A DNA stretch of 64,000 bases from NCBI GenBank assembly GCA_905178155.1, contig CAJINV010000005.1, positions 6,249,207-6,313,206 on the forward strand, given 5' to 3'. The stretch comes from Amoebophrya sp. A120 (Eukaryota; Protista; Dinoflagellata). Shown in pieces: positions 41 to 56,400 of this stretch (position 1 is its first letter; every line of letters begins with the position of its first letter). The position numbers were made by a program, and so were the translations under genes. Under the pieces are notes generated by a model. It ran no database searches and was not told the origin of the DNA. It saw only the letters and a list, made by a program, of their open reading frames with translations.

Positions 41-3000
41 TCATCGTCGTTTATGCAGAAAGCAGACCGAAACGCACTCAACTTCATGCGGAGGTGTAAC
101 GTGCTCTATTTTGGCGATCATGGTACTTACTCCTGCTGCATCAAGAGAAGGGACAAAAAAAGCTGTATAAGCATGCGAAAAACCCGCATGACATTTTTGA
201 CAAATTGTATTTATTTTCCCAAAAGCTGCCAGCAGTGTGGGAGCGGCACACTCACTTCCCCTCCATACTGCGCTGTCCGTTGGCTCTTCGCCCACTGTTC
301 CGAGCATGGAAGACGCGGTCTGATCGCCGTTGCTTGTGGTGCCTTCATATCCTGTGCAAAAGTATCGCACTCGTACTAATTGCGTTCATGCAGTCTTTAT
401 TTCAAGGCAAATCCGCATTACGAATTTAATTTGTAGTGCTAAAGTCAGTTTGTAATGCATTTATATATACGAGTGCGATGCTTTTGCACTGCATACTTCA
501 GTTGCTCCTGCCCCCGCACTAGGGGCGCCGACAGCGGAGAGGAAGCTGGGCTTCGAAGGTAAGCGCAACGGCCCCAAGTCCGCTGCGGACCCGAGTCCAG
601 AGGAAGAATCGCGCTGTCGCCCCTGGTATCCAAAAAAAGAACTGTGCATAGAGTAACTTTGTAAAGGAAGATGAACAGCATCACACATTCGTTTTGCATT
701 ATTAAACCTGTCATGCGCAGCTACTACGTGGAAACATCACGTATGAAAGTAGCCTACTTATCACGCAGATCCAGCATGACAAGTGTATATAGTTTTGCAC
801 CTTCTGCATCACAGAGTTACACATACACTCACATAGTTTTTTTCTTGCATACCTGGTACATCAACAACGGGAGTTCAGAAATTTTCACCTCTTCGACCTG
901 CTCTACCGCGCCGAACTTGTTGGAAGTGGAAGATTGATGTGGCCGCTGCTGTTGTTTTAGTATCCCGTCCGGGTTTATCTCTTCTGCTGGGTCTTCCACA
1001 GTGCTTTGCAGTTTTTTCCGCAATGATCCCGCAGGCTTGGCGTCCATCGCCTTGATCAGCTATGCAATACCAATTTGCCGCACATATACAAGATGCATCA
1101 CAAATTTCCGCAATTTGGAGTGTTAGAATTGTCATGCTGAACTAACATTGGAGCCAAGTTTTGTCATGCAGCGACCGCATTTGTACGTGTACGGGAACTT
1201 TACTGTGGATATCAGCGGTAAAAGAATCACTTCTGTGTGGACGGAGGATTTCATTTCCAACGTGATGTTCATTTTCAGAAGTATCAACTGCAAAAATGTC
1301 TGGGTCTCCTGGAACTTTGCTCGACTTGTCATGCAGGTTTTCCATGACCCATATGATCTGTAATGGAGGACCTAGCATGACAGATTCCGCGAGATCACTA
1401 TCATGCCTATCCTGCATGAGAAACTGCCTCTCAACTTGATCAAAAGTGGACAGCATTTGGTAATCATGCAACACAGATTTTCATTTTTGCCGCGTGATTC
1501 AGATTTAGCATCACAAGTTCCAACCTTCCAGACCCAGACATTTTTGCATTTGATAAGAAGACCGTATTTACCAAACTCCGCTTTAACCTGCATCGCTTCC
1601 GGACTATCGAATGCAAATATGTCTGGGTCTGGAAACTTGTGATGCTAAAATGTGACTGGTGGGCGGACTGCAATACGCAGCCAAGCATGACAAATTTTTC
1701 AACTACTACTGTGTTTCGTTTTCCGCATGGCAGACTGCGTTTTTGCATGACAGGCAAGAGGCCATTTTCCTGCTCATGCATCACAGATTTATGAGTCATG
1801 CCAGACAAGCATGACAAAGTTGCATTCTTCCAGACCCAGATATATTTGCATTTGATACGGCCGGCTGTAAATCAATTCCAGTATGACCTCGTCCTTTGGC
1901 TTTTCGAAGCCGAGTTTCTCGTAGAAAAACAGTGCTGAAGCGAGCAAATCCGGCGTCAAATCTTTCTTCGTCGCCACCGTCGACCCTGCAGCAGCGGTGT
2001 ATGACCTGCGAAAGTGATATCGCATTCGCACTCGTAGTTGTATTGCAATACAAATTAGCTCAGCGTGGTGTTGGTGACAAATGGAATAATTTCTCATGGT
2101 GAGTTCGCTTGAAGAAGAAATTTGTCTTGCATGACTGCGATTATTAATACGACTACGATACAACTTTTGCACCGAATACGGTGGCAGCAGCTACAACTGC
2201 TCCCCCTCCTGCTGCGCCTCCGGGCCCGCCCGCAGTGATATCGGTCACCACGGCGTTCTCCGGGCTGGCTATGCAAGAAAAAAACTGTGTAAGCGTAGCT
2301 TTGTAATGCAGGACATGAAACAGAGTTGCGCCTGTCATGCCAGACAGCCATGTTGAGTTCCTCTTTTCATATGTGTTATCCCTTACAAGCTGCGCATGAT
2401 AGGTTTTCTCTGTCATGTAGAGCAAATCTGTGATGCTGTCAGCCAAAGATAGTTACACTAACACAGTTTTTTTCTTTGATACTGGCGGACAGGCAGCTGA
2501 TGTTCGGACGGTAGAGGGAAAAACACAAGTCTTGAATGCGCCAATCCTCTTCAGCGATGTGCTGCAGAAAAAGCGCGCAATCTTCGTGCTGCCACATGCA
2601 GCAGTCCAGCAGGGGCAGCAATTCCTTCTCTAGCAAATGAGCGTTTGCGGGTACGGCAACCTTCGCAGCAGCTGCGGGAGTGCCGTTCACCGATCTGTTC
2701 AGGAAGTTGGCGCTGTCTTTCGCTTCGTCCGTCTGTTCCTGCTGGTCGCTAAAACCGACAAAGGGACTCGGGTACACATCACACAGCATCACCCCTGCGT
2801 CACACCGTCCGTTCCCGTGCAAAGTAATCCAGACCTTGTAGAACTCAACCTACAATATGGCGTTCTCAAATGTTACACTCTCAACTGTAATGCAAGAATG
2901 GCAAAAGTGAAAGGGGCACGGTTACCCCTGCTTTTGCATTACATTTACAGGTTTGGAGCAGATTGCAATACATTCTAGCGCATCGAGAACTTGTCATGCG

Positions 3001-5042
3001 AAAGAGGCTTGATCGTGTGAAGGGTGATAGTGTTTTTGCACGACAAATCACGTAACATTTGAGAGTGTAACGGGTTGAGAACCCCGTATGCAGGCACCCC
3101 TTATTTGGGTTTGTGTCCGTGGCCCTCAGCTTCGCCGAGGTACTCTATGCAAGAAAAAAACTGTGTAAGTGTAACTCTGTAATGCAGAATATGCAACAGA
3201 GTTACTCCTGTCATGCCAGACAGCCATGAAGTCCTTTTTTCATGTGTGTTTTCCCTTACAAGCCAGGCATGACAGGTTGTCGCTGTCATGTAGAGCAAAT
3301 TTGTCATGCTGGCAACCAAAGAAAGTTACACTCACACAGTTGTCTTTTTCTTGGATATACTCCTCCCGCTGATCAGTTGGTGGATCTGCTCGAAAGAGTT
3401 CATGTTGCTGTATCAAAAGGAAAAATCCCTCCTCCCCATATCGAAAACGAAAGTTGTGATGCTGTATTTGAGTACACAAATCGATTTGTCTTGCTAGAAG
3501 GCCAAGAGCCGCAGCTGTGGTCTGGTTTGCAGGCAATTTGTCATGCTGTTTCAGACTTCCGGCTGCCTCCTGTCATGCTGAAAGTGCAAGGCTTTCCCAC
3601 ATCACCACCCAGTAGTACAGTGTCTACATCTTTTCCCTTCTAGCATAACAAAGCTGATTTGTGACCACAAATCTGCATTACAGATTTCCGTTTTGATATG
3701 GGGAGGTGGGATTTTTCTTCTTGATATGCTGTTTTCGCACTTTTCGTAAAACTTCCGAATGTCCCGCAGCGAACCCAGGTGCGGGTGCGGATTCCACGGT
3801 ATCGCGCGAGATTCGATCTCGATGCTGGACATCGCAAGAAAAAAGTGTTTACAGTTACACATATGTCAATTCAGCAACACAAATTTCTCTAGATCAGATA
3901 ATGCAGAAATCCGACGGGAAAACACGTACGAAGCCAGGCTCCTATGCATATCTGGCATGACAGAGCTTGTCTGTCTTGCTTGGTCTGCATAGACTATGAC
4001 TATGTGTAACACTTTTTTCGTACGATAGTGGACTGCTGGGCTTTCGCGGAGCCGCGAGGGGAAGCTGTTGACCCCGACGCAGAAGCCGGACTCGCTGTCG
4101 TCTCTAGCCTTTCACTGGTTGAGGTCTCTCCGATATAGACGCAGTAGGACAAATTGTTTTCGAAGAGATGATGTGCAGTGGAAAGGTTGCAACATCAGCT
4201 TGTCGTTGGGCAAAAACTACACCATCTCGCAACAGAAACTCACACCGCAGGTGAAAGAGAGTGACGTTTTTCGTATACGTAGTAAATTGCAACCGACGTT
4301 GATGTCAAGTTCAATTGTAGTTTGCGCATGCCAATTTTTTTCAGTCAGTGCATTTCTTGCATTTGTGTTGCTCAACGTGCGTATTACCGGGTACAACATT
4401 TTTACCACTGTTCCATAACAACGCGAACAGGTTTGCGCAAAAATCCAACTGCTGCAGGGTGATGGACGGAAAGGCCTGCTCCAGGGGCACGTTGCTGTTT
4501 CCCAGCCAGTCGACCGGGTGCATGACCGGCTGTTTTTTGTTCCGGAGGTTGTTCACCAAATCGCGATATGCTTCGGGACTCAGCAAGGACAAGGCGTCAC
4601 TCCCGCCCGCTCCCGCGCCGGCCGCAAGGTCGGCGGCGGTTTGGTCCCGCGAGTTGGAGCGGGAGCGCGCCATCTGGTGGCCTGGGGTATATGAAATGTA
4701 AAAATGTCTGGGTCTGGAAGATTGCAACATGTCATGCTAAATCTGCAGCATGCAAGAATCTGTGTTGCATGATTACCAAACGTCGTCCAGTTTTGACCAA
4801 GTCGGGAGGGAGTTTCTCATGCAGGATAGGCATGAGAAAGGTCTCGCAGAATCTGTCATGCTAGGTCCTGCATTCCAGACCTCATGGGTCATGGAAAAGC
4901 AGCATGACAAATCGCGCATTCTTCCAGACCCAGACATTTTTGCATTTGATAGGGTAGCGCCAGCTGCAGAGCCTGCTCCTCCAGGCGGCTGCAACCGCTT
5001 GGCCCCGAACGCAGGTCGAGAAGAGGTGGCCGCGGAAGCCAT
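41..5042 (-). CDS. Hypothetical protein interrupted by 13 introner elements; 3' end uncertain
   Basis: ATG at 5042 (MASAATSSRP). Removing each TIR element plus one DR joins the ORF-track fragments into one frame (e.g. LPLLMYQ|GRQRDSS, AGATE|GTTSNGD). No domain recognised. Confidence 0.7.
348..495. mobile_element. Introner family A (TIR TATCCTGTGCAAAAGTATCG)
   Basis: About 28-bp imperfect TIR, DR cttca/cttca. Confidence 0.9.
627..851. mobile_element. Introner family B (TIR TATSCAAGAAAAAAACTGTG)
   Basis: DR cctgg/cctgg; readable as GT-AG on the minus strand. Confidence 0.9.
1061..1211. mobile_element. Introner family C
   Basis: DR tcagc/tcagc; reverse-complement homologue at 35418-35571. Confidence 0.85.
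1282..1555. mobile_element. Introner family D1 (TIR TATCAAATGCAAAAATGTCTGGGTCTGGAA)
   Basis: DR agaag/agaag. Confidence 0.9.
1605..1857. mobile_element. Introner family D2
   Basis: D-type TIR, DR cggac/cggcc. Confidence 0.88.
2000..2178. mobile_element. Introner, diverged family A
   Basis: Degenerate TIR, DR cggtg/cggtg. Confidence 0.8.
2270..2481. mobile_element. Introner family B
   Basis: DR ctggc/ctggc. Confidence 0.9.
2856..3088. mobile_element. Introner family E (TIR TATGGCGTTCTCAAAYGTTACACTCTCAA)
   Basis: TIR clear, DR degenerate (tacaa/tgcag). Confidence 0.82.
3146..3357. mobile_element. Introner family B
   Basis: DR tactc/tactc. Confidence 0.9.
3411..3726. mobile_element. Introner family F (TIR TATCAAAAGGAAAAATCCC..CCCCATATC)
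   Basis: Long TIR, DR tgctg/tgctg. Confidence 0.9.
3830..4027. mobile_element. Introner family B-like (B2)
   Basis: TIR catcgcaagaaaaaagtg / cactttttt..cgata, DR ctgga/gtgga. Confidence 0.78.
4134..4385. mobile_element. Eroded introner or non-canonical intron
   Basis: Weak TIR tatagacgca / tgcgtatt, DR tccga/accgg; removal joins NVVPG|ETSTSER. Confidence 0.55.
4690..4951. mobile_element. Introner family D1 (reverse orientation)
   Basis: DR gggta/gggta. Confidence 0.9.
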
Positions 5043-5268
5043 CTTCTTTTAGGAGAAGCAACAGAAAGTATATGTGTGATAGTCCTCTCCTGCGCGACGT
5101 GCGAATAAATCCGATTCCGAAGATAGAAGATTGCTCTTTAATTCAGAAAAAGACATGCCTACTCGTATACTAATGTGCCGAACAGCAACAGAGTGGTTTC
5201 AGATAAAATGAACTCAAATAATCAACCTCGGTGTCTTCTTCCAAGATTATGTAGTAGTAGTAGAGCGG

Positions 5269-6848
5269 TCATGAACAGCGCACAGCTATGATCACACGGG
5301 AAGCAAATTCATGTTCATCTTGCACCGATATGTAATTACGATAGAGCTGGACAGGTACTAGATTTCGGTTTTCCCTGACCGACGGAGGTAGATTTACTTC
5401 GTTATGTAGAACCGTAGCCTGCATTTGACGACGCCGGATGAACATGTTCATCAATCTGATACTGATTATACTCCAAGCTTTTGCATTTCGGTTTCCCGCC
5501 CCGTCGGGGAAATGGAACAAGGAGCTCCAGAACGCGCAGTCGCTACACAAATCATCATTGTCGCTATCTGCATTGTCTTCTGGGGTTTTGCATTTTTTGA
5601 AGGAAATGAAGAACCACTCTTCTTGGAAAAGCAGCCACTCATCTCGTGTTTTCGTTTTCGTTTTTGTTCCTATCATCATTTTTCTGTCATTGTCGCCAGG
5701 TCGTTTGGGTATCATCTTCAAACGAAATCGTTGCTGTATCTGCATTGCTGCAGCGTTCTTGCCGGCCCTGCGTCCGCACTTTTCAGTGCTCATGCGAGTG
5801 ATCGCGATGTCGCCGGTTCGCGTCCTGCGGTATGGCTTGCTCAATTGGAAACGATCTCACTTGGAAAACCTATTTTTTGTGATGCAAATACTGGAGAGAC
5901 TTCGCCCTTGTTCCCTTCATATGCAAGACAAATTTCGCCTGGTTTAGGTTTAGCTTTACACCGTTTCAGTTGCGATTGTTCCAGCTGTGCATGCCATACG
6001 CATCGCCGCCCTCTCCTGCAGCTCTTCCTGCTCATGACTGGTGCCGCGACTGGTACTACCACTACCCCCGTGTGCGTGATGGGAACCAGAACCGGTGCTC
6101 CGGCCATCACCAGAATTCCTGCCGCTTTTGCCGTACGGGCCATGCCGCTGTTCAACATCCCCAGCCGCATAATTCCCCGGCGTCACTACCCGTTCTTTCG
6201 TGACCACGCTATGCATTGCAAATATGTCTGGGTCTGGAAAATTTCAAGATTTCGATTTGTCATGCTAGTCTGGCATGACTCTGCATTCTGTATTGCGCGG
6301 CCACGAACAGCCTCTCTCGCCTGTCATGCAAAAACGCAGTTTCTCATGCGGAATGCGCAGTACAGAAGCTGTCATGCTTGACTGCGCATTACAGTTCACT
6401 TATTGCTCGCTGACTTGCATCACAAGTTTCCAGACCCAGACATATTTGCATTTGATACACGCCCAGACTCACCGACTCCGGCGGCAGCTCGCCTCCCGGG
6501 AGCTGCTGTGCCACGGAAGAAGAGTATGCATTGCAAAAGCATTGCATCGTACTAGTACAAATAGCATTACAAATTTTTTCAGCATGAAAAATTGAATTTG
6601 TCATGCTGTTTTACCTTGGAAAGGACATTTGTCATACATAACTGCAATTAGTACGAGTACGATACTTTTGCACAGGATAAAGAGGAACCAGATCCAACGT
6701 TCGCCAGGGAGGTCCGGGAGGGGGGCGGAAAATTCGCCGCCGGTGGTCCGCTAGCGCCGCTTGTCGTGGTGGTTCCTGCGCTAGTACTGGCTGCGCTCGC
6801 TCCGTACACCGAGGGGCAGCAGCCGGCCCGGGGTATAAACGGGTGCAA
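5269..6848 (-). CDS. Hypothetical protein (2 introners plus a probable intron near 5845-5960); both ends uncertain
   Basis: Frame restored across 6525-6679 and 6210-6457 (GSGSS|SSVAQQ...SLGV|VTKERV). Confidence 0.5.
6210..6457. mobile_element. Introner family D2
   Basis: DR cacgc/cacgc. Confidence 0.9.
6525..6679. mobile_element. Introner family A (reverse orientation)
   Basis: DR aagag/aagag. Confidence 0.9.
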
Positions 6849-7228: not shown

Positions 7229-8877
7229 TCACATACAGTAGAGTAGAATTCCCAATCCGAGCACGCTCAAAACCAGCAACAAGCAGTTTCTCCGCGTTTC
7301 CTTCTTCTTCTTCTCCCGGTTTAGCCGGTCAATTTCACTGGTACCGGCATAGACGTTGTCACTCGTGTCCTGGAGGTAGTGTTCGATGTTCAAAATCTGC
7401 TCTCCCTGGTCCGTCACCACGGTGGCCAGGTCCTTGAAGATTTTCTGCACCTCGCCCACCTGCCCCACGATCCGCTGGATGCCCTGCTGCCGCTCCTGCG
7501 CGATCCGAGAGTTCATGTTCGCGTCCTCTTGCTCCTGCAGATACCGCTGCTGCTGCTCCAGCTGCTGCGCCTGCTGCAGGTAGGAAAACGCACCACCTGT
7601 TCGGTCGTTCGGGTTGCCAAGTTCGTTCTGTGCCGCGCCGCGGTTGCGCACTTGGAGGCCCGTAGTAGGGTCCAGGGAAGTTGTACTGTTGGCCGTTGTT
7701 CCGGCTGTAGTACCGCCGGCGCTGTTCCCGCCGCCGCCGTCGGTGCTTTTCGCGACGTTTTTCGAATGCAGCATGCGATGTTCGAATTCGTCGAGCGAAT
7801 TCTGGACCTGTCGCTGGACAATCTGCATGTTGTGGACTTCTTCCTCGAACGCCAGTTGGGGATTATGCAGCACAAAAGCATCGCATTTCGTAGACATTGC
7901 AATACAAAGTCTTTTAGCAGGGAGAATGGAATTTGCCATGCGGGTTAAGGTTGGAAAGCAGATTTGTCATGCATACCATGCAAGAATTACTAGCACAGCA
8001 CGAGTAAACGATACTTTTGCACATGCTACAGTTTCTCGACGGACAGCTTCTTGTTTCTCGCCAGCCGCTCCCCAGCGAGAGACACCTGCCAGTCGCGAAA
8101 CAGCGACCTGCCGTCTTCGATCAGGCCCTTGCTGTTCAACAGGAAATCCTTAAACGCCACTTCCTTCGGCTTGTACTCGCCCTGGTATCCAATCATTTGC
8201 GAGGTAATCGACGTGGACAAGAGTTCCTCGCGCGCAAGCCGCGCTTCCTCTTGCAGTCGTTCGATGATAGATTTGATGTTCCGTTCGTAATTGGAGGTGG
8301 AGGAAGTGGATTGCTGATGTGTAGTACTTTGTGCAGTACCAGCGGAAAACGAATGAAGATTGTTGCTGTGAGCCACCTGCGCCATCGCGTGGTGCTGCTG
8401 GGCATTGATGACCGGATGTTGTGGAAACGAGCCTCCCGGTGTTGTGCCGCTCGCCCCTGGAAGAACGCCGCCTGTTGGCGGCGCTTGGAGATGGTAAGAC
8501 GCTGCTCCACAACTATGTGAAGATGCTCCTTGGAGTAGTTGTCCGCCGCTGGTGGAAAATGGCCGGGCAGCCGTGCTGGAGGAAGATCCACCGGCCGTGA
8601 AGTTGTGCGTCGTCGTTGCGGCCCCGAAGTTATTGTTCGAACTATGATGTCCAACATGATTATTGGAAGACAAACCTAACAAATCCGGCGTGGTACTAAC
8701 AGGTCCACCCGAAGGAGCCAAGTTCGGCGTGGTGCCTCTTTGGTGTTGATATGAGAAATTCTGTTGCTGGTGCTGGCCTTTTGGGGAAAACAGGGTGCTG
8801 TTGCCACCTCCAGCCCCGGGCCCTTGCTGGTGCTGGTTGGGCGCGTTTATTTGCTGGGTCAGGTTGCGAAAGGACAT
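7229..8877 (-). CDS. Syntaxin (Qa-SNARE, Stx7/Pep12/SYP2-like)
   Basis: SNARE motif IAQERQQGIQRIVGQVGEVQKIFKDLATVVTDQGEQILNIE, basic stretch, C-terminal transmembrane helix; two exons joined SVEKL|AFEEE. Confidence 0.88.
7858..8028. mobile_element. Introner, diverged family A
   Basis: DR cagtt/cagtt with 6 extra nt (ggggat) before the left TIR. Confidence 0.75.
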
Positions 8878-9938: not shown

Positions 9939-11631
9939 TCAAGTCGCGACCCCGAGCATTTGCAGTAAGTTAAATCCGTATTTCAATTCCGGTTTCGAGG
10001 TTCGCGTTGGATCCAGGTAGGCCTGTGTCGCGCTGGTATCCACGTACACATTTCGCTCGTCCCGCTTGTGCATCTTGTCCGTTTCCGCCTTCTCCAACGC
10101 CCCACCGTCGTCCCCGCTATTCTCCTTGTCCCCGTTATCGACCACGGTTTCAAACTTGCGCACCGATTGCGGCTCGCCGGTTTTCTCGAACTCTTCATTC
10201 CTCTCCTCCGGCGTCCGGTTATCGACGCTGGACCGGGAAAATTCCTCGGTCGCCACGCCGTCCGCCTTCGGCGGCTTATGGCGTTCTCAATTGTTACATC
10301 GCCAACTGTTCTTACATGAATTTGTGATGCCAGAATGGCAAAAGTGGAAGGGGGGGCCTGCGCGTCTTGCATGACAGGTTTGGCACAGATTTACACGCTG
10401 TTGAGCCCTCCGAGAATTTGTCATGCGAAGCAGCTTGATCGTCTGGTGGCTCATGGTCCTTTTGCATGACAAATCACGTATACAAGCGAGAATGTAACAT
10501 CTGAGAGCGCCATACGGTTCGTCGTGCGGTTCGGACCCGAGCTCCTCGTAGGTTTTGTATCCTGAGTAAACACGTCCCCACCACATAGTCAAGATGGGCA
10601 ATATGCTAGACAAGTCAGCCAGCTTTGGCTATTGCGCATGACAAGCTTGGCCTCGTATTGTAATCCTGTTTAGCTCGTTTAGCAAGCAGCATCACAGATC
10701 TAGCCTGCTATGCTGACTGGAACATTACAACTTCCAAAACACGACGAGAAAACGCTTCTCATGGGGCTCCGCATGAGAAACACTTTGAGATTGAGCATGC
10801 AGGTTTGCATGACAACTATGGGGTGGCGACGTTTTTACTCAGGGTATTTTGATGTTCGGATTCAGAGTACCGTACGTCGACGGCTTCTTCGGGATATACG
10901 TCGCGCCGGTGAACGGGATGTCCTTTTCCTCCTTGTACAGGTCCGCGTACTATCAACTGCAGAAGTGTCCGCTTCTGGAAGAGTCGGGGCTTGTCATGCA
11001 CATTTTGCATGACCCGTGAGGTTTTCCTTGCTGGTGCTAGCAACACAGATTTTTTGAGAGCCTCTTGATGCTAATTACGCATGAGAAACGCCCTCGCCGC
11101 GTGCCAAGAACTGAGTCCTCTTGCTGCTCATGCAACACAGATATTGTTAGAATCCGCAGACAGCATTACAAGTTCCACTCTTCCAGAGCTAGACACATTT
11201 GCAATCCATACGTACTCGTTGCCCGCTTTGTGGTACACGTTTCGCGAGCCTTTCCCGTGCGCGTTGTGCCCCCCGCTCTTCAACGTCAGGCCGTAGATGT
11301 CCCGCGCGCCCGTATCGTACCGCATGTACCCGTTGTTCTGGTGTTGCAGCTCGGGCGTCAAGGATTCGAACTGGTTCAGCTGTTTCAGCGCCTGGTTCCC
11401 CAGCGCGGTGGCGGAGGAAGCGAGGGTCTTCGCGTAGGTGGAGGAAATCAGGGCGCGCTGGAGGGCGCCGCCGGACTGGTTCACCAGTTCCTCATACCAC
11501 TCCCCGATCGCGGGTGGGTACACGTCGTGCTCGGACTGGGCGCAACCGGGAGGAGAAGCGCCCAACGTGTAGGGGTCCTTCCCGACGTGGGGGGCGCCAT
11601 TTACAAGGGAAACCTCGGAAAGGAAGGGCAT
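9939..11631 (-). CDS. Hypothetical protein (about 300 aa, 3 introners)
   Basis: MPFLSEV...AGNEY|ADLYKE...NPNIK|TYEEL...HDEP|PKADG...LGVAT*, continuous after element removal. Confidence 0.75.
10277..10514. mobile_element. Introner family E
   Basis: DR cggct/cggtt. Confidence 0.88.
10558..10846. mobile_element. Introner family G (TIR TATCCTRWGTAAAAACGTCCCCAC)
   Basis: DR ttttg/ttttg. Confidence 0.9.
10951..11210. mobile_element. Introner family D1
   Basis: DR cgtac/cgtac. Confidence 0.9.
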
Positions 11632-36274: not shown

Positions 36275-36325
36275 CTGATTAAAGCTCGAGGTAAATGGTA
36301 AGGGGGAGAGCGCACTGGGAGAGAA

Positions 36326-43459: not shown

Positions 43460-46400
43460 TCACTTCAAACCACAGTACAGCATGGTGACGAGAACACTTG
43501 TGTCGTCTCCTCCGTCGGAGAGTTGGTAGGCAATATCGGCTATGGATTGCAAAAATGTCTGGGTCTGGAAGAATGCAGGAGTTTGTGATGCAGATTTTGC
43601 ATGACCCATGAGGTCTGTGATGCATGCCCTAGCATCAGAGATTTTGCGAGGGCTTTCTGATGCTCACACCGCATCAGAAATGCCCTCTCCGCGTAGCACA
43701 AATTACACCTCTTTTGCTGTTCATGCAATACAGATTCTATGTAGAGTCCAAATGTAGCATCACAAGTTGCATCCTTCCAGACCCAGACATCTTTGCATTT
43801 GATATCGGCCAGATCCTTCGCTATGTCGGACAGGACGGTGGATTGCTTCATAAACAGTGCCTATCGCAAGAAAAAGCTGTTTCACTGTCGTGAACTTGTG
43901 ATGCATAGAGTGGAGCACAGAACTATTTGTCTTGCTACACCTGCACGACCTTGACTCTTTAGGGGTGTTTTCCCTTTGAAAGCGTGCATGGCAAATTTTC
44001 TGTCACATGTGTAACAAGCTTGTGATGCAGATCTTGCAAAACCATCACAGTGAAGCAGTTTTTTCGTGGGATAGTGCCTCCTCTTCCGCCGGGCTCAGAC
44101 GATTGCGCTCCCGAGGGGAAAGCCTGGCGTGGTCGTAAAGAAACTGCTGACAGGCCGCAAGTTGGGACTGGTACTTCAGCGCAATGCGCGGAATGTCCGC
44201 ATTCTTGAGAAAATCGAAGGCGCCGTCCGTCCCCTGCATTATCAAGTGCAAACATGTCTGGGTCTGGAAAGTTGCAGGATTTGTCATGCACATTTTACAT
44301 GACCCATGATGCCTGTGATCATGTGTGCCCTTGCATGACAGATTTTCTGAGGTCCTCTTGATGCCTGTCCCGCATGAGATGAAATGACCTCTCCACGTAG
44401 CAAAAACCGGGCCGCTCCTCGTGCTGCTCAAGCAATACAGATTCTTTCAGCATCCAACAGCAGCATGACAAGTTGCATCCTTCCAGACGCAGACATATTT
44501 CCAATGCATATGCACCAGGAGTCCGCAACACTGCTCCACCTTTTCCAAGTCACACTTCTCGAGCACCGACGCCTCGTGGAACAGGTCGATGCACCGAGTT
44601 TCCGGCTCGTAAATGAGCGCGCCGTTGACGCGCGGCATACATTTCGCGTCGTAGTCGCCAATCGACCGGGTGGGCTGCAGTCCGCCCAGCCGCCCGTTGT
44701 GTGGCGGCGCCGTGATGTCCGTGATCCCAGCCCGCGCCAGCCGCGCGCGCTCGGCCTCGCACCGGCAGGACTGCTCCACGGACAAGTGATTCAGGCGCCC
44801 GAACTGGAGGTGCTTCTTCCGGTCCCCGTCCCCCCGCGCTCGCTTGGACGAGGTGCAGTCACTCAGGGGCACGTACTTGGCGTCGCAGTCCCCGACCTGG
44901 GCGCAATACAGGTAGCGGCCCCAGCATAGCACCGCGTTCATGCAGGTGCCGGACGAGATTTTTTGTCCCCACAGCGCGAATTCGCAGTGCTCGGCCGCTT
45001 TCTTCATGGCCGCGGCCGGCGAAGTGCCCCGTTGTCGAAAGTCGTTCAAGACCAGGTCCGGGAATATCAACTGCAAAAATGTCTGGGTCTGGAAGATCGC
45101 CAGGTTTGTCATGCGTATTTTGAATGACCCATGATGTCTGTGATGCATGCTCTAGCATCACAGATTTTTCGAGGGTTTTGTGATGCCTCTACCGCATGAG
45201 AAATGTCCTCTCCACGTAGCACAAACCGGAGTGCTCTTGCTGGTCATGCAATACAAAATTTTTTAGAATCCAGACACAGCATCACAAGTTCTGAATCTTC
45301 CAGACCCAGACATATTTGCAATTCACAGGGAAAAATTCCGCCACCGTGGTCGCGGCCTGCGCGCCGTCGTGGCCGTCACAGACGTATGCATTGCAAAAGC
45401 ATCGTACTAGTATAAACCGCAATACAATAAATTTCCTTAGCATTAGAAATGGAATTTGTAATGCGGATTTGCCTCAAGAAAAAGATTTGTAATGCATGAC
45501 TGCGATAATTACTACGAGTACGATACTTTTGCACAGGATAAGACACCCGAGATGAACCAATCGACCTTTTTTTCCTCTCCTACCGTGCCGACAAATGAGA
45601 AAATACGGTCTTCGTTTCCCCGGTGCGCCGGCCACACCACGTTGATCTTGCCCTCTTCTTTCTCCCCGGCCGCGGCTTCGTCGTCCTCGTTGGCACCGCT
45701 GCTTGACTTTTTCTTCTTTCCTTCGTCATCAGATTTTTCGCCATCGTCGCTGTGCTTATCCTCGTTCTCTGCAACCTCGTAATATGCATTGCAAAATGAA
45801 GTATCGTAGTACTCGTATAGATGCATTACCTCAGCATGAGAGTTGAAATTTGTAATGCGGATTTACCTTACGAAAAAGACTTGTAATGCATGACCGCAAT
45901 ACGAGTACGATACTTTTGCACAGGATACCTCCTCGTCCCGCTCAGGCGACAGATCGCGCCGCTTCTGGGTGTGTCAACTGTAAAAATGTCTGGGTCTGGA
46001 AGAATTCATGTTTGTCATGCTTGTCTGGCATGACTCCTAAATCTGTCACGCACGTTACCCAAGAGCTCCGCTTTTCTGTGATGCAGAAGCGCAGTTTGTC
46101 ATGCGGAATAGGCAACACCTAGGAGCTCAGAAACTTGTCATGCTGAGCCAGCATTTGTAGCCTCATCGTGAGACGCCGCCCAGCATCACAAGTTTCCAGA
46201 CCCAGACATTTTTACATTTGATAGGGTGAACTTGCGGCTCAAGTACATAAAATTCATATTCTCGCTCTCGCGCGCCAGGTTTCTTGCGCGCAGTCCCGCG
46301 AACTTCTTTTCCCGCGCCGTCTTCTACGAACTGCAAATATGTCTGGGTCTGGAAACTTGTGATGCAAGAAAGGGAAGAGTGAACATTCTGTAATGCGCTG

Positions 46401-47885
46401 CCCAGCATGACAAGGTTTTCCGTGGTTCTGAGTTGCGTACTCCGCATGAGAAACTGCATTCTTGCATGACAGGCAAGACGAGGAGCTCTTTGCGGTGACG
46501 CAACACACACTTCAGAGTCATGCCAGACTAGCATGACAAATCTCGCAACGTCCCAGACCCAGACATATTTGCAATTCATATCTTCGGCAGTGTCACGTTC
46601 CCGGCTAGATTCTATGGATTGCAAATATGTCTGGGTCTGAAAGAGTCGGGGTTTGTCATGCACATTTTGCATGACCCATGAGGTCAGTGATGCAGGTCCT
46701 AGCATCACAGATTTTTTGAGAGCTTCTTGATGCTTATCACGCATGAGAAATGCCCTCTCCGCATGCCAAGAACTGGACTCCTCTTGCTGCTCATGCAACA
46801 CAGATATTTTTAGAATCCGCAGACAGCATTACAAGTTCTACTCTTCCAGACCCAGACATTTTTGCATTTGATAGATTCTCAGTCTCGTCCACTTCGATGC
46901 TCCGAAACTGTTTGATATCTACCCGGCGCTCCCGCTTTTTGTTTTTCAACACGACCGGCTCCCTATTTTTTTCGACCCCCGGCGGTTTGTCCGCGTTGGC
47001 CAGGTCCAGTGCCTTAATATTTAGTTGTACCCCCGGCGGTTTTATCCTGTGCAAAAGTATCGTACAAATGCAATTCTTGCATTACAAATGTTTTTCTTAA
47101 TGTAAATCAGCATGACAAATTTTATTTCTCATGCTGAGGGAATTTGTCATGCATTTATACGAGTACGATACTTTTGCAGTTCATAGGTTTGTCCGCGTTG
47201 GCCAGGTCCAGTGCCTTCAGTATGGATGTGTCAGGATCGAAATCGACAAAATCGAAAAATTTGTAATGCATATAAATGTAGGGTAAGTAAGGCCTGTGTT
47301 GGGGAGCAGGCAAATGCGACCGACTGCAAGCCTGTTTAGGGGAAGGAGATGCGCTGCCAAAGTGGCACGACAGGAGCAGTCTTCTTTACGTACCCAAACA
47401 GCATGACAGACTGGATTTATTTGGTGCAGCTCCCGAAATTTGTCATGCGCCACTTGGAAACTGAGGCTTAAAGTGGCATCGACTTTATGCATCGCAAATT
47501 GCTTCGATTTTGTTGATTTCGATCCTGACACTCCCATATTCAGCGCTTCGGCCGTCAACGGGAGCTGCTGCCCGGGGGAGGTAACGGGCTTGGGTTCGTC
47601 TTCGTCTTGGTCTTGGTCTGCCCGCTCTGGCTCCTTGGGCTTGATCTCGTTCGCCGCGTCGCTCTTGTGTGCCTCGCTCAAACGCTTGTTTGCAGCTGCA
47701 AACGCGTCCCGGTCGAAGGGGGCGATCGGCGGCTTAGCGAGGACCACCGGTGGTTTAGCGACCGTCTTCGCGCTCGGCTTAGTAATCGTCAGGCCGAACG
47801 GGTTACTGCTCATGTTCTGACTTGCGGGACCTTGCGGCAGAGGCCGCAGCCGCTTGGCAGCGGGGGTGGGAGTGTCTTCGGGCAT
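43460..47885 (-). CDS. PP2C/PPM-family protein phosphatase (11 introners)
   Basis: The spliced product has RGNEDR, GV|CDGHDG, SGTC, CAQVGDC, GRLGGLQPTRSIGD, V|QGTDGAFD and GGDDTSVLV; TGA at 43460-43462. Confidence 0.9.
43541..43804. mobile_element. Introner family D1
   Basis: DR tcggc/tcggc. Confidence 0.9.
43862..44073. mobile_element. Introner family B-like (B2)
   Basis: DR gtgcc/gtgcc. Confidence 0.85.
44240..44510. mobile_element. Introner family D1
   Basis: DR tgcat/tgcac. Confidence 0.88.
45065..45327. mobile_element. Introner family D1 (right end CA)
   Basis: DR gggaa/gggaa. Confidence 0.9.
45385..45540. mobile_element. Introner family A (reverse orientation)
   Basis: DR agacg/agaca; splits the PP2C GV|CDGH motif. 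Confidence 0.9.
45780..45927. mobile_element. Introner family A
   Basis: DR cctcg/cctcc with 3 extra nt (taa) at the left end. Confidence 0.82.
45972..46223. mobile_element. Introner family D2 (left end TG)
   Basis: DR gggtg/gggtg. Confidence 0.9.
46325..46580. mobile_element. Introner family D2
   Basis: DR tcttc/tcttc. Confidence 0.9.
46613..46873. mobile_element. Introner family D1
   Basis: DR gattc/gattc. Confidence 0.9.
47043..47185. mobile_element. Introner family A
   Basis: DR ggttt/ggttt. Confidence 0.9.
47221..47538. mobile_element. Introner family H
   Basis: DR ttcag/ttcag. Confidence 0.9.
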
Positions 47886-49155: not shown

Positions 49156-51356
49156 TTACACCCCATACGTCGTGTCAATCTTCCGGATCCCGGCGACTGA
49201 GTCATCCCTTAACCCGTAAATCGTCTCAAACCGCTTTCTCTGCCTTTCCTCCTCCAATTTTTGCCTCTTTTCCAACATCTCATCCGTCACCGGCTCCTGC
49301 ATTTCCCCGCCGAGTAAACTGCCACTGCTGCTATTCCCCAACACCCCCTCATCGCTCGCCTCGATGGTTGACGGGGAAAAAACGTGCTCCAACTCGAGCA
49401 CGATCGCGTCCAACTGGTGCAAACTCGGCCCGGAAATTTTTTTCATCACCTCTTTGTACCGCCATCCTCCGTCCTTCTCATTCGCGTCGTAACAGGGATT
49501 GTGCTCGAGGTAGAGGCATTTCAGCTTCAAATTCCACAAGCCCGCTATTCTTTCATCATTTGCCGCAAGTTCGATTTGCTTCTGCTTGGTTGTTTGGTAG
49601 GGCGTTGTTATGGTTGGTGTTGCTATTGCTGGTTGTAGCTGTACTCCTCCGCTGTCGTCCGGTGATTTTCGCTTCTTCAACAATTCCCCGGACGGCGAAA
49701 CTACGGTCGCCGCGGTTAATGCCCTTGCATTTTCATCTCCTTCACTATCCTGCTTGTAACTATAGTGGTAATCGATGTCGATCCCGCACCCGCTCATCCA
49801 CAATTCCTCTAACTCTGACAACCGGAACTGCTTCGGTATTGAATTTATCCTTTTATTCTGGCTAATGTCCAGCGTTTTTAAGTTCGGCAAATAGTGGTCA
49901 GAGAACAAAAACGGACTTCCGCTTTCCGCTCCGTCTGGTGTGGAGATGGGGAAGGGTGGGAGGTTGTTTTCCGATAAATACAGCTGCTCCAATTTCGGCC
50001 CGCAGAGGTTCTCGAAGAACGACGCCTCCCAGTGTTCTAACCGGTTGCACTGGATCGAGCAGATTTCCAAATCGGGGAGAAAGTGCTCGTGTTCATCCTT
50101 CATATTATCATCAGTCATGCCGTTCACCTTCATGGTGGTGATTTTGTTTTTCCCCAACCACAGCTCCTTCAATTTCCGGTATCAAAAGAAAAAGTCCCCC
50201 CTTCCCATATCAAAACGGAACGCAGATTTGTTGTCACAAATCAGCTTTGTCATGCTACACGGGAAAAGATGCGGACTGTAGTGCTGGGTGGCGTGGGGAA
50301 GCCTTGCATCTTCCGCATGATAGGAGGCAGCTGAGAGTGGGAAACAGCATCACAAATTGCCTGCAAACGAGGCCACGACTGCGGCTCTTGGCCTTCTAGC
50401 ATGACAAGTCGATTTGTGACCTCAAATACAGCATCACAAATTTCGTTTTCGATATGGGGAGCGAGGATTTTTCCTCTCGATATCCGGAGGTGGATCACGT
50501 CCTGCGGGATTTCGCGTAGCCGGTTGGCGCCGAGCTCGAGGATTTCCAGATTCTTGAAACACGATAACGCGTTCTCCGGAACCTCTTCTAATTTGTTGGA
50601 CGGGAGGTACCTGATGGGTTGTAGCAAATGAGGGTATAGGATTTAGGAAACAGTTCTGATAGTAGTTTGTCATGCTCAGTAAAAATGCAATCCTGATTTG
50701 TCATGCGCACCACAGCACATCAGAAAGAAAACAAATCTTAATCTATACAGTTTCTTCAGCGTATCCGCAAACACCGGTTTTTTGTCAATCCGGTCCGGGT
50801 CCCCCGCGTCCAAATACCCCAGATATCGGATCCGGTTGAAGCTCAAGTCTAGATGCTCCAGTTTCGGACAAAACTCCAAATTCTCGATGCGTTTTATCGC
50901 GTTTTGATACAACTCCAAATGCCGTAAGTTGCACAAAGTCTCCAACCCCTCGATTTTCTCCACGTTGTTCGCGATGAGTTTCAAAACTTGCAGATTACTC
51001 CCGATGATGTCGAGATTGACCATCTGCTGGATCCTTGCTGTGGACAGAACCAGTTCCGGTTGGTTCGGATCTAAAGGGATGTCCTTCCCCAGAATCGTGA
51101 ACTTCGGCGCGGACTCGTCCTGACATTCCGTGTTCACACCAGCCGCCGGGTTGATCTTAATCGCGTTTTTGGATTCCGTTTTGAGGTTCACGGATTTGTT
51201 GTTGTTTTTCGGAGAGGGAGAATCGGGTATGATGTCTTCGCACGCGAAAAGATCATCGTCGTCGTCTTTGTTTGCGGCGAAAAGCCCGGACCGGTCGACT
51301 TTCACAGACCCAAAGGTCTGGATCATCGGGTTGGGCTTCGGCGGGTTGGCGGCCAT
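49156..51356 (-). CDS. SDS22: Sds22-like leucine-rich-repeat protein (PP1 regulatory subunit 7)
   Basis: Sds22-type LRRs (LRHLELYQNAIKRIENL, LEHLDLSFNRI, LEILELGANRLREI, LKELWLGKNKI) and LRR cap LYLEHNP...YK...LHQLDA; GT-AG intron 50611-50748 plus an introner. Confidence 0.85.
50180..50482. mobile_element. Introner family F
   Basis: DR tccgg/tccgg. Confidence 0.9.
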
Positions 51357-53471: not shown

Positions 53472-56400
53472 CTACAGCAACAACCCCCGACGAATTCCCT
53501 GTGGGTGTCTAACCGAGCTGTTGATCGGCTGATGCTGCCCTGACGGGGGCACTGCTTGTGCTAGTTTCTGGTCACCGTTGTTTTCTACTTGCCCCGATGT
53601 TGAACTAGTACCGTTCATCATTTTCCCGTCCTGGGTCCTCGTCGCCCGCAGCTGCGGATTCAGCTCAAACGCACCGACCTGCAACAGCTTCGCCAAAGAA
53701 TCCCCTAAACTTAGCTTCACGAAGTTGTTGCCCCGACCGTAGTTCGCTTTTCGCATTCTCTTTGCGTGAAGATTGTTGTGGTCATAGTACGGGAAAGAAG
53801 AAGATCCCCACTCGTCGTGGTCATAGTCGTAATTGTCATCGCGAAAGCCGCCGTACCACCTGTCGCCCCGCTGCGTGTTAGTGTAGCGGTTTTCCCAACT
53901 GTCCGCGTGGTGGAAGTGCGGCCTTTCAGGCTCCCGACTCGGCGCCGTATAGATCAGCTTCCAATCGAATTTTTCCTCCTCGGGGTTGATGATGGTAACG
54001 TCTCCAGCAGCAAGATCTGCAGCTTCTTCATCCAATTTGGCAAGTTCTTCTGGAGAAGTAGATTTGTTCGCTGAAGATCCTTTTCTGCTTCCCCCGTCAG
54101 AAACTTGTATCCTTCCATACTGGAACATCACAGTGATCTCCCGACTCGCGGTCAAGAAGGAACTACCCTGCTTGTGTTGCCGCTGTTGTTGCGGAACCAA
54201 TTGCTGTCCACGACAAATCTCGCTCGGGCGCAGCAAGGGACTGGTGGTCGGACTGGGGCTTCTGCTGCGGAGGAAAGAAGTTGCGCCCGTAGCACTATCC
54301 CTGGAAGCACTTGCGGATAGAAAAGGTCGCTGGAGTTGCTGTTGCGGGGACGCTGTCGCTGTAATGGCAGGAGCACAACTTGTGGAGACCACGTGACTCG
54401 TGGAAGTTGGTTGCGGCCGAAAATCCTCCACGCTCGCCTTGGTCTTGAAGAACTGTGTTGTGAACTTCAGAGAATCTGTCGTCGTTGTATCCCCAGCCGC
54501 TTCAACATCATCTGCAGCGTCACTTGTTCCAGTCAAATTCAAATCGAAATCCTCCACGACAACGTGCCACCCGGTGGGGACATTGTGCTCGTAGAACCCA
54601 ATCATGATCTTGCTGCGCGTGAACATCAGACCGAGGCCTATCAAATGTAAAAATGTCTGGGTCTGGAAGGTTCTGAGACTTGTCGTGCATGTTTTGCATT
54701 GGCCATGATGTCTGTGATGCATGCCCTAGCATCACAGATTTTTTGAGGGCTTCGCGATGCCTATTCCGCATGACAAATTCCCTCTCCGCGTAGCAAAAAT
54801 TGCATTCCCTTTGCTGCTCATGCAATACAGATGTTTTTGGAATCCAAATTCAGCATCACAAGTTGCATTCTTTCAGACCCAGACATTTTTACATTTGATA
54901 AGGCCGGAACGTTTGCCATTCGCGAAGTTCCCGACGAACCACCTGAGGAAGATTTTTTTAAAGAAAGACTAAAAGTTTTTGATTTTGTTCTTGATTCTAG
55001 CATCAGAAAAACAATGCGTTGTTGCAGCACGATGGCACATCTTGCGACAAAGACTTCACCAGAGAAGAGGAAGATGACATCAATAGAACGCAGAGTTATT
55101 TTGCAGACATTGTCATAGTACCCTAGATCCCCCAAGCGCAGTCTCCCCTTCCCATGCGGCACGACCTCCTGAGCGGTCGCATAGGAGCCGTCATGCAGTC
55201 CTCCACCCGGATGACGCGGCGCACCAGCAGCAGCCGTTATTTTCCCAACGAAATCAAACTTGGAAGAGAAACTGCCTACACGGAGGTCAAAGTTCAAAAG
55301 CTTGTTTTGTTGTTGAGTACTACCCGCCGTCGCGTATGAAGATCCTTGCTCTGCTTTCTGAAACGATTTCTCATACTGCCCAATCAACTTGTACAACTCA
55401 TCGGGCGAGGTAAACGAGTCCACATTCGGCCACGAATTCCCCGTTTCCGTCCAGGACAAATTGTTGCTGCTGGCTGAAGCAGAACTTTGCCGGTACTGTT
55501 TTTCTTGGTTGAAGATAAGAAAGTCTTGGAGAATTTGCAGGAGATACGGTGATTTGGTGCTCGTTTCAAACCAGGTGGTTAGTTGCTGTACTGGTACTGG
55601 TTGCTGATGTTGCAACTCTTCCATCACAACATCGCAGACCGACTTCGGGGCACAAGATCTTGCCGTGTAGCAAGAGGCCGCAGCTTCGCTGGCCGGCGGC
55701 GTACCATATTGGGATCTAGTACTCGCGTCATCTTCTTCATACGACAGCTCGAAGGGGTGGTCATTTGCTTGTAGTTCATGAGAAACAGCTGCACCGGCTA
55801 CTGCTGCGAAGCCCAAATCCACATCGGGCAGACTGGATTTGCTTAAACTCACCGCCGCGGGTGGTAGGGAAAAAGGCGCGAGCAACGGACTTCTCGGGCA
55901 AGAGGAGGAGGGACCAGTAGCTGCTAGTCCAACTCTGGAGGCCGCGCCACGACTGGAAGAAGATGACTCGACAACATTTCGCTGACGTCCACCATTTTTC
56001 CGCTGTAAAAGACCGCTGAAGAAATTCGCAGACAACAAATTATGATGATCCACCCCGCTGTATGATCTATTGCCCGCGAAGGTCCTCGTCCCCCCTGTTG
56101 TTGTCGAAGCCAACCGCAAAGTTCGTACCAGCACTGGGAAGTCAATCATCGATAGCTTGATTAACTGGTCCGCGGATTCCGGTTTCTTCAAGCTAAAATA
56201 CAGGTAGGAATCGTTTTCTCTCTTCAAGTAGGGGAAGATCCGGTGCAAATCGGAAGTTTTGGACGCATTTTTCCACTGTTGCGGGGTCACCTGCCCGTAC
56301 GTTCTCCGCAAAAAAGCGAACCGGGCTGCGAGCTGCCACCAGAGCTGGGATTCAAAATCCTGGAATAGTATTGAAGAGTGGCGCCGTGGGGGATGAGAGG

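Follow-up and report, generated by a model that had tools for sequence, protein, structure and literature searches.

A spaced internal motif shared by introner families of Amoebophrya sp. A120: a putative binding site for a mobilising protein

A120 has 29,850 introns of the introner type (PMC7789003, section 11), and how they spread and are spliced are stated open questions (PMC7789003, section 16). An earlier note on the window, i.e., the whole 64-kb stretch of A120 DNA analyzed here, had picked out an 8-mer, TGTNATGC, repeated inside introner families. It was proposed to form a conserved code read by one trans factor, either a transposase helper or a protein that marks the segments for excision. 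Here we ask how this motif is distributed and constrained, and what might read it.

Elements and motif sites in the window

Curation yielded 56 window elements with TAT...ATA ends and 5-bp target duplications (TSDs), in 12 families. An exact 5-bp TSD flanks 68% of 345 strong-TIR elements, as against 0-11% for other TSD lengths. With TIRs, a fixed TSD, short length, many copies and no coding capacity, the elements fit a MITE or non-autonomous TIR DNA transposon. Their TIRs had been called unrelated, which is overstated: every one opens with TAT[C/G] and duplicates 5 bp of target, and an A-run occupies positions 11-14 in most. In the TIR profile, for which TAT was the search seed, A occupies positions 11-14 at 0.74-0.92, with weaker runs in families E, H and K. 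Whole 14-mers are common to A, D1 and D2. The TIRs of A, B, D and N11 open with TAT followed by a motif-like site (offset 3 fits best in 10/28 ends), a likeness not found in E, F, G, H and K. The features are listed below in window coordinates, with the skip in RNA for those found spliced.

348..495, family A element (TIR and 5-bp TSD, family assignment)
627..851, family C element with 4 exact motif copies
1061..1211, family B element, sites 34-, 69+, 101+ (35 and 32 apart)
1282..1555, family D1 element
1605..1857, family D2 element, 5 exact motifs
2000..2178, family A element, decayed, weak TIR; predicted intron reads GT...
2270..2481, family C element
2857..3088, family E element, older, TSD 3/5
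3146..3357, family C element
3411..3726, family G element, three direct 32-bp pairs
3830..4027, family I element
4690..4951, family D1 element
5831..5998, probable decayed element outside the 56, two sites 45 apart (nhmmer E 0.015)
6210..6457, family D2 element
6525..6679, family A element
7864..8028, decayed family A element outside the 56 (nhmmer E 2.9e-23), sites 7899, 7934, 7965
10277..10514, family E element, two convergent 45-46 pairs
10558..10846, family F element
10951..11210, family D1 element
13844..13993, family A element with 13886/13917 pair, spliced (skip 155)
14032..14290, family D2 element, spliced (skip 264)
14356..14634, family F element, spliced (skip 284)
14831..15010, family J element, single exact motif, spliced (skip 185)
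15095..15305, family C element lying inside a GT-AG intron (about 15088-15478)
15641..15799, family A element with 15683/15714 pair, spliced (skip 164)
16755..17006, family D2 element, spliced (skip 257)
17098..17375, family F element, spliced (skip 283)
17510..17745, family E element, spliced (skip 241)
18170..18344, minus strand, TIR-less GT-AG intron with a single motif, at 18227
18639..18945, family H element lying inside a GT-AG intron (18627-19060)
19323..19593, family D2 element, spliced (skip 276)
19663..19812, family A element, orientation opposite to the 13844 element, spliced (skip 155)
19877..20121, family D1 element, internal deletion across first motif block, spliced (skip 250)
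22943..23140, family K element, spliced (skip 203)
24631..24638, minus strand, solo motif in a GT-AG-type intron (RNA exon end 24561)
25056..25323, family D1 element with convergent pair 25130/25146
25466..25473, plus strand, solo motif in a GT-AG-type intron ending 25522
26687..26694, plus strand, solo exact motif, poor flank, non-element intron
29265..29533, family D1 element
31104..31259, family A element with 31146/31177 pair, inside Suv3 helicase gene
31906..32185, family F element
35418..35571, family B element
39446..39702, family D2 element, TIR with indels
39953..40092, family A element
40168..40488, family G element
41006..41156, family A element
41231..41384, family A element
41914..42137, family C element
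43541..43804, family D1 element
43862..44073, family I element
44240..44510, family D1 element
45065..45327, family D1 element, right terminus altered
45385..45540, family A element
45783..45926, family A element, TSD unclear
45972..46223, family D2 element, left terminus altered
46325..46580, family D2 element
46613..46873, family D1 element (N7 example of the earlier note)
47043..47185, family A element
47221..47538, family H element
50180..50482, family G element
50668..50706, plus strand, motif pair at 31-bp spacing within a predicted TIR-less GT-AG intron
54639..54900, family D1 element with convergent pair 54713/54729
57261..57410, family A element

The window holds 194 exact matches to TGTNATGC, where 100 dinucleotide shuffles gave 9.27 ± 2.85 (maximum 18). 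Of these, 179/194 fall inside the 56 curated elements (12,656 bp in total); 55/56 elements carry at least one exact copy and 51/56 at least two. Among 420 permutations of the same letters, the runner-up had 63 matches and the median was 1. The N position of the 194 matches is read as V because it holds C (98), G (52) or A (40) and T only 4 times. The full footprint is wider than the 8-mer, RRAYY-TGTVATGC-W, with C, A and G tolerated at position 4 and T rare (34/1855). Coding DNA is nearly empty of the motif (0.05-0.13 per kb vs. 1.6-3.3 per kb), which is 4.5-fold enriched in long non-coding DNA.

That all families carry the motif holds for the 12 families of the window. In a metagenome assembly, whose loci were fetched using a motif pattern, 479 of 491 further elements have it. 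The generalization fails for two motif-free metagenome elements with TAT...ATA ends and exact 5-bp duplications. One (L071:1938-2477) has H-like ends and breaks up a plausible reading frame; its exact TSD and zero motif sites imply that insertion of such an element happened without the motif. The other (L067:4103-4623) has its own, different repeated motif, in line with a separate code for each mobiliser. One metagenome element of 815 bp whose ends are those of family E (L072:2395-3209) has strong sites at 44 and 91 and at 42 from the other end, and about 600 bp without strong sites.

Conservation and spacing of the motif

Neither of the outcomes that the earlier note gave as refuting its proposal was seen. 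Motif columns differ sharply from their neighbors. Identity was 0.89-0.97 at core positions, 0.58 at position 4, which is free, 0.59-0.84 in the motif flank, 0.67 in the spacers and 0.84-0.86 in the TIRs. The core was more conserved than the spacer in 11/11 families (82-97% vs. 57-70%), to the same degree in families outside the reach of the search pattern (D1, D2, F, C, K, E, G, and I). Nor do the families align end to end with free spacing: once motifs and ends were masked, 64/66 family pairs fell below z 4, yet the spacings are shared. Per-copy core decay was 5.1% (63/1233), near the TSD mismatch (14/216 plus 2/54), and did not differ with the place of insertion: exonic, 7.2% of 289 copies; non-coding, 8.1% of 35 copies (p 0.36). 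In the closest copy pairs the core differs by 5.2%, spacers by 9.9% and TSDs by 6.4%, so the core may be under some constraint after insertion.

The spacings that recur across families are direct, 31-33 bp; convergent, 15-16 and 45-48 bp; and divergent, 17 and 34-35 bp. When one map per family was compared with 1000 nulls, direct 31-33 accounted for 15/30 pairs (reached by 0/1000 nulls), convergent 46-48 for 6/19 (9/1000) and divergent 33-35 for 5/14 (14/1000). The 31-bp direct pairs first noted in family A (13886/13917, 15683/15714, and 31146/31177) are exact. The convergent pairs claimed for family D are present in the N8 form (tgtgatgc-atgcccta-gcatcaca, at 25130/25146, 45139/45155, and 54713/54729), whereas the second half of the N7 form is degenerate (gcatgacc, 46654). 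What had been called a fixed grammar is wider than this, convergent 45-48 and divergent 35 pairs outnumbering convergent 16. A weaker opposite-strand site lies at +15 between direct pairs in 14/21 pair classes, and the +15/+31-33 module is present in most families. Reading 31 bp as three helical turns is one good fit, but a roughly 16-bp lattice fits as well as a 10.3-bp one; without the direct 30-34 pairs the lattice fit (0.51-0.53) is barely above the free-period null maximum (0.50).

Position 4 was the sole position variable enough for covariation to be tested. Partner sites did not covary there, whether in hairpin-able pairs (11/24 vs. 12.2 expected) or end to end (46/145 vs. 43), and an RNA stem formed by complementary copies was rejected. 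The fixed spacing of inverted pairs indicates recognition of duplex DNA.

Splicing and candidate readers of the motif

In one sample, 12/12 checked elements were absent from RNA contigs, the skip being the element plus 5 nt, i.e., one duplication. An imperfect TSD at 14032..14290 places the splice cut within 1 nt. Elements are spliced in both orientations, and the borders are non-canonical (predicted acceptors are AG in only 27/362). The 14831 element, which has a single exact site, and the 19877 element, which has lost a motif block, are spliced like their neighbors. It appears to be the ends of the element, and not the motif, that fix the splice sites, with the donor one base before TAT and the acceptor four after ATA.

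We consider it probable that the elements are short non-coding DNA transposons and that RRAYY-TGTVATGC-W is a putative double-stranded DNA site for a mobilising protein, either a transposase or its partner. The lack of covariation, splicing in both orientations and equal decay favor a duplex site selected at transposition over a splice signal. The proposed conserved code for one trans factor is supported by core conservation and by common spacings in unalignable families. Between the two candidate factors, the transposition side fits better; an excision mark is weakened because both orientations and a single-site element undergo splicing and exonic copies decay no differently from non-coding ones, yet non-element introns are enriched in the motif. 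The protein would bind a chain of half-sites that alternate in orientation at intervals of about 16 bp, the chain repeating every 31-33 bp (about three helical turns) from a first site 32-36 or 40-48 bp inside each element end. Copies with intact arrays would be duplicated more often, so that selection would act chiefly at transposition while spacers drift. No transposase or autonomous element was found in the 64 kb plus 491 kb, long elements had no Pfam transposase, and prokaryote and viral collections gave no match. No transposase has been reported for A120, and general transposase mobilisation has been argued against (Farhat et al., PMC7789003 section 16).

The motif might instead be the site of a host DNA-binding protein, chromatin-associated or co-transcriptional, which labels introns at the DNA level and assists a U1-less spliceosome in removing segments with arbitrary borders, with carriers tolerated in exons. 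We regard this as unlikely. In its favor, 17 sites occur in 14/50 non-element intron-like segments (0.92 in shuffles), including two TIR-less segments with intact 31-bp pairs and one with a 17-bp divergent pair. Near-absence of the motif from coding DNA and core conservation above spacers even among the closest pairs agree with it, orientation indifference could be explained by duplex recognition, and passages of PMC7789003 report U1 as undetected in A25 and A120. However, 36/50 intron-like segments have no site at ≥12 bits, the elements at 14831 and 19877 are spliced with one exact site and a deleted motif block, respectively, decay does not depend on exonic location, and the motif-free L071 element sits within a plausible reading frame. 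Moreover, solo sites can be relics of old insertions, since the decayed elements at 7864 and 5831 retain theirs; the former keeps its 35- and 31-bp spacings. We are similarly doubtful of a combined scheme, in which a single host DNA-binding protein allows dozens of unrelated introner families to move and also marks the DNA of elements and some ordinary introns for U1-less splicing, as a double-stranded intron-definition code of fixed geometry. Should a host factor of splicing or chromatin prove to read the motif, defining introns via duplex DNA would be new.

Very unlikely, in our view, is that the families all go back to a single ancient element made of a roughly 31-bp module and that the array is kept for DNA physics (phased A-tracts, bending, or nucleosome placement), helping to bring together the ends of a 150-320 bp element with no sequence-specific reader. 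The recurrent +15/+31-33 module, the A/T tract in the flank and the equal 10.3-bp fit are consistent with it, and common descent may be the source of the shared module. Yet it is the 7-base core that is most conserved, not the A-tract flank, and position 4 discriminates against T; both point to base-specific readout.

Action in RNA, as a branch point, hairpin arms or the site of an RNA-binding protein, is highly improbable. GCAUBACA resembles the branch-point consensus yUnAy. In families D, E, and H, whichever way the element is oriented, a sense GCATBACA precedes the predicted acceptor by 40-52 nt, orientation within genes is biased in some families (A 42:66, D1 19:44, C 6:19), and decay is slightly lower with UGUVAUGC in the RNA (6.8% vs. 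7.8%, p 0.07). Against this, median acceptor distance ranges from 39 to about 155 nt with family and orientation, and a sense copy occurs in just 2/18 reversed F and 4/19 reversed C elements, though reversed is the commoner orientation; a spliceosomal branch point was rejected on these grounds. Furthermore, GCATAACA, the most branch-like variant, is avoided, complementary sites do not covary, and fixed spacing across opposite strands is meaningless to a single-strand reader. An artefactual origin of the motif, from base composition or from a small number of repeat families, is almost certainly wrong: within-family copies are related, D1 and D2 have common ends and the metagenome loci were fetched by motif, but shuffles, permutations, within-family conservation contrast, masked alignments, cross-family spacings and equal conservation in families untouched by the search pattern all oppose it.

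That unalignable families have one conserved, spaced motif in common is an argument for a single factor acting on most of them, and many published families would collapse into one functional system. The motif offers a bait for pull-down of this factor and a signature for finding the autonomous partner across the whole assembly, and would help gene prediction.

Comparison with known systems

The ends of Mu, Tn7, and Tn5053-type elements combine a 5-bp TSD with several spaced transposase sites, as here, but these elements are bacterial and have TG...CA termini. The hAT element Ac and the CACTA element En/Spm likewise pair a short TIR with subterminal transposase-binding repeats; the TnpA sites of En/Spm are arranged head-to-head and tail-to-tail, and CACTA TSDs are 2-3 bp. 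Membership in the MULE, hAT, and CACTA superfamilies was rejected, the TSD being 5 bp here vs. 8-9, 8, and 2-3 bp. Ginger DNA transposons were likewise rejected on the TAT...ATA termini and lack of an integrase match; published introner family 38 is without Ginger termini and TSDs by the source paper's own account. Unlike the window elements, hAT, CACTA, and Sleeping Beauty elements are not known to be spliced as precise introns. According to parts of PMC8151067, Tol2 and Sleeping Beauty (IR/DR) resemble them in joining a short TIR to internal transposase-binding repeats; Tol2, a hAT element, differs in its 8-bp TSD and termini.

In structure the elements fit published A120 introners, with TAT-starting inverted repeats and an A-run, short direct repeats, non-canonical borders and a length of about 150-320 bp (Farhat et al., 2021, PMC7789003; Gozashti et al., 2025, PMC12130899). 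As in Farhat et al. (2021), the inverted repeat consists of TAT, 7 variable bases and an A-run, a direct repeat of 3-5 nt marks the border, and removal from RNA uses non-canonical borders. The L072 element resembles a published family with "5-bp TSD, TA/TA termini" of 808-810 bp (PMC7789003; PMC12130899). The portions of these papers on A120 introners describe terminal and direct repeats only, and mention no internal motif common to families and no spacing rule, in contrast to the internal spaced motif found here. TIR-derived introns of Fritillaria and euglenids share transposon origin, TIR, TSD, and non-GT-AG borders, but the excerpts of PMC11282704 describe end signals, not internal spaced arrays.

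Muta1, a MULE foldback element, carries subterminal repeats of 12 bp joined by linkers of 3-4 bp that drift, and both transposase binding and excision rise with the number of repeats, as set out in sections of PMC5499845. A short motif inside the ends, a 15-16 bp pitch and drifting linkers are common to both systems; Muta1 differs in its tandem repeats within one 145-bp TIR, TSD of 8-9 bp and known transposase (same sections). Apart from the L071 and L067 elements, the introners carry a short conserved motif near both ends with drifting linkers. Compared with Muta1, their sites alternate in orientation, their TSD is 5 bp, and one motif extends across at least 12 unalignable families.

Motif sites and the elements that bear them

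The window contains 194 matches to TGTNATGC on its two strands, against 9.27 ± 2.85 expected from 100 dinucleotide shuffles; 420 same-letter permutations of the pattern gave a median count of 1. The variable base (position 4) is C in 98 matches, G in 52, A in 40 and T in 4, and flanking bases lengthen the window copies to RRAYY-TGTVATGC-W. An automatic search for terminal inverted repeats (TIRs) gave 52 candidates. On inspection, three were dropped ahead of counting (36919, a satellite, 63179 and 5831), one (2874) was re-bounded and seven were added, giving 56 elements in 12 families; 45783 and 39446 were excluded from the count of target site duplications (TSDs). The elements cover 12,656 bp and hold 179 of the 194 matches, with at least one in 55 of 56 and at least two in 51. 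The feature is real and has more structure than first described.

Three motif pairs cited in an earlier note as 31 bp apart are all exact. Of its two convergent examples, the one with an 8-bp spacer is also exact, and the one with a 7-bp spacer has a degenerate second half. The same note took the TIRs of the families to be unrelated; they are a related set, because all start with TAT and finish with ATA, or decayed versions of these, and a 5-bp duplication is found throughout. The elements fit the A120 introners as described by Farhat et al. 2021 (PMC7789003). At positions 15–30 from the ends, the TIRs contain short tandem repeats that differ by family (e.g., C-runs in F, G and K; doubled units in D, E and I) and may form a second, family-specific code. 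The element-bearing genes of the window lie on the minus strand, and Pfam matches were found in 4 of the 23 ORFs scanned (Suv3 helicase, PP2C and an LRR protein among the names). Other features of the window are as follows.

11960–13300: GC-rich intergenic block (60% GC); it has long open frames, none with a Pfam match
36340–37064 and 37070–38360: two satellites, one with palindromic units of ~60 bp, the other made up of arrays of short units, both inverted and direct
15942–16637: motif-free GT-AG intron of 696 nt within an open frame; some contigs skip it and others retain it
15088–15478 and 18627–19060: GT-AG introns with nested elements ~7 and 12 bp from the acceptor, skipped whole in contigs

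A three-site motif pattern including no TIR, which has 6 matches in the window, was used as a search query. In 28 of 64 parts of the metagenome collection it matched at least 147 stretches, given as at least 145 loci, all from one assembly among the matches listed, and had no match in viral contigs or prokaryote genomes; end patterns of families A and D likewise had none in viral contigs. In 491 kb of unique metagenome DNA, 491 elements were identified. At least one site is present in 479 of them and at least two in 469, and 5 bp was the only duplication length supported. They belong to window families (best identity 94%) and to new families in which the motif is present too. One 1126-bp element (L033:448–1573) has ends of the type seen in N11, a 110-bp family, and internal palindromic repeats of ~140 bp. 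The query favours intact A, B and H copies, and copies matching it were excluded from the tests of decay and spacing constancy.

Evidence on splicing comes from four runs of a single sample (X3–X6), whose contigs are presumed to be RNA. Among the 15 of 25 joints listed, four skip a GT-AG intron and 11 an element, and a twelfth element skip occurs in contig pieces. Every element skip (12/12) has the length of the element plus 5 nt; across 13837–20120, the element is spliced out with one duplication, which leaves the empty site restored. Two of the duplications are imperfect and so narrow the position of the cut; the simplest rule that we infer places the donor 1 base before TAT and the acceptor 4 bases after ATA. 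Donors predicted in this way are N-T, with GT not strongly in excess (117/362), and acceptors come close to random. Splicing is also seen in elements that have one exact site or a deleted block. The DNA-like run X1 reads through one element and continues into the next. Raw-read run X9, chosen by its species label, gave 94 partial reads and no junctions; 77 of its reads, at 29503–29535, show an end of D type, the motif in its usual position and then unrelated sequence, and represent one expressed, unspliced copy elsewhere.

Spacing and conservation of the array

Spacing was tested on one site map per family with 1000 nulls. Same-strand sites lie 31–33 bp apart in 15 of 30 pairs (0/1000 nulls), convergent sites 46–48 bp apart in 6 of 19 (9/1000) and divergent sites 33–35 bp apart in 5 of 14 (14/1000); convergent distances of 15–16 bp and divergent ones of 17 bp also recur. 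Across 14 family maps, the 43 adjacent gaps are consistent with a period of 10.4 bp if inverted sites are shifted by 5 bp (mean cosine 0.60; 0/500 nulls), and a 16-bp period fits them equally well (0.66). When the period was left free and direct 30–34 pairs were taken out, the fits (0.51 and 0.53) barely exceeded the highest null value, 0.50. Between the members of direct pairs, 14 of 21 pair classes have a weaker site on the opposite strand at +15; the classes are not fully independent, and the main one of A has no such site. The array would thus be a chain of alternating half-sites ~16 bp apart, repeating every 31–33 bp. From the first site to the element end, the distance is mostly 32–36 or 40–48 bp at both ends. 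In families A, B, D and N11, the TIR itself looks like TAT followed by the motif, with 3 as the best offset for 10 of 28 ends; the same comparison found no such likeness in E, F, G, H and K. A presumed likeness of the motif to AP2-type TGCATGCA or PUF-type sites was dropped, since position 4 varies freely and the spacing of inverted sites is under constraint.

Between window copies, identity is 0.89–0.97 at core positions (the motif less its variable base), 0.58 at position 4, 0.67 in spacers and 0.84–0.86 in TIRs. In the larger set, the core (0.82–0.97) exceeds the spacers (0.57–0.70) in 11 of 11 families, including 8 that the search pattern does not touch, so the motif columns are more conserved than their neighbors; T occupies position 4 in 34 of 1855 instances. 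Nor do the families align end to end as one ancestor. With motifs and 30-bp ends masked, only D1–D2 (z 4.3) and C–I (z 4.7) among 66 family pairs rose above shuffles, with three further pairs at z 3.6–3.9, yet spacings are constrained. These results contradict both outcomes that, according to the earlier note, would refute a binding code.

What may read the motif

Per copy, decay is 5.1% in the core (63/1233) and 4.7% in invariant TIR columns, and TSD mismatches number 14 of 216 and 2 of 54. In the 28 closest copy pairs, differences amount to 5.2% in the core, 9.9% in spacers and 6.4% in TSDs; with growing divergence the spacers double and the core climbs slowly. As a clock, TSD mismatch has little power, since it showed no correlation with decay in either core or spacers (7.0, 7.9 and 7.1%). 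These data fit selection in the transposing lineage followed by decay after insertion, and they leave room for partial host constraint.

That a host factor reads the motif as a mark of introns is, in our judgment, improbable. Core decay is 7.2% in exonic insertions (289) versus 8.1% in non-coding ones (35), a comparison of low power (p 0.36). Exact sites also occur beyond recognizable elements, 72 versus 26–29 expected in the metagenome loci and 13 versus ~4 in the window, mostly in DNA that a coding model scores as non-coding. Of 50 intron-like segments, whose borders are mostly predicted, 14 hold a total of 17 sites where shuffles give 0.92; two 31-bp pairs and one 17-bp pair are among them. 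Long non-coding DNA holds 48, against 10.8. Such sites weigh against the reading of the motif as a mobilizer's binding site; they could stem from old insertions or point to a host reader. Two degenerate, inverted copies at 28885 and 29030, in a non-element intron-like stretch of the window, are perhaps a relic.

Predicted coding DNA is interrupted by 362 of 420 classified copies, and 11 of 12 families occur there in either orientation. Position 4 does not covary between complementary sites in close convergent pairs (11/24; 12.2 expected), convergent pairs at 44–49 bp (67/172; 62.5) or end to end (46/145; 43), and shows a slight excess in divergent pairs (165/337; 149). The distance between a sense GCATBACA and the predicted acceptor ranges from 39 to ~155 nt; among reversed copies, 16 of 18 in family F and 15 of 19 in family C have no such sequence in sense. 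Given this lack of covariation, the use of both orientations and the variable or missing GCATBACA, an RNA role as branch point or hairpin is unlikely. Within genes of the window and loci, three families are biased in orientation (A 42:66, D1 19:44, C 6:19), D1 and C toward more UGUVAUGC in RNA.

A mobilizing protein that binds the motif as duplex DNA is a reading weakened by the fact that no transposase was found here or, by Farhat et al. (PMC7789003), in A120. Pfam transposases were absent from 23 window ORFs and 13 ORFs inside long elements, and a zinc-finger-plus-DDE pattern from 691 ORFs. L072:2395–3209, an 815-bp element that lies within a frame of 1735 codons, has the ends of family E and retains its strong sites there. 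By description it resembles in size and ends an A120 family of 808–810 bp ("5-bp TSD, TA/TA termini") listed by Gozashti et al. 2025 (PMC12130899). The L072 ORF has one homologue, P0001, an unnamed 281-aa prediction without domains that, at 84% identity, is probably another copy of this element. Two elements count against a motif-binding mobilizer. L071:1938–2477 (540 bp), which breaks a plausible reading frame, has an exact duplication and ends like those of H, and lacks any motif site. L067:4103–4623 is a foldback-like TAT...ATA element of 521 bp flanked by an exact 5-bp duplication. It contains a different internal motif, GTTATCGA, nine times and in both orientations, and is possibly a second mobilization system.

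Comparison with known systems

The motif is apparently undescribed so far. No description was found in the mostly open-access literature searched or in the text and supplement text of PMC7789003, whose figures (e.g., S19 and S25) may show it, nor in the accessible parts of PMC12005148 and PMC11282704; a literature search with the motif strings gave neither among the matches listed. We regard a mechanism of known kind, in which the motif is a transposition-side DNA site, as the most likely one, and as probable rather than assured. With the array, the question of what moves A120 introners becomes directly testable.

En/Spm, Mu and Tn7 are presumably further systems for comparison. TSD length excludes the elements from the superfamilies of Muta1, Tol2 and Sleeping Beauty. 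In its manner of working, the array would be like the subterminal repeats of Muta1, which are 12-bp units with drifting 3–4 bp linkers that raise binding and excision (PMC5499845); it would likewise be comparable to those of Tol2 and Sleeping Beauty (PMC8151067).
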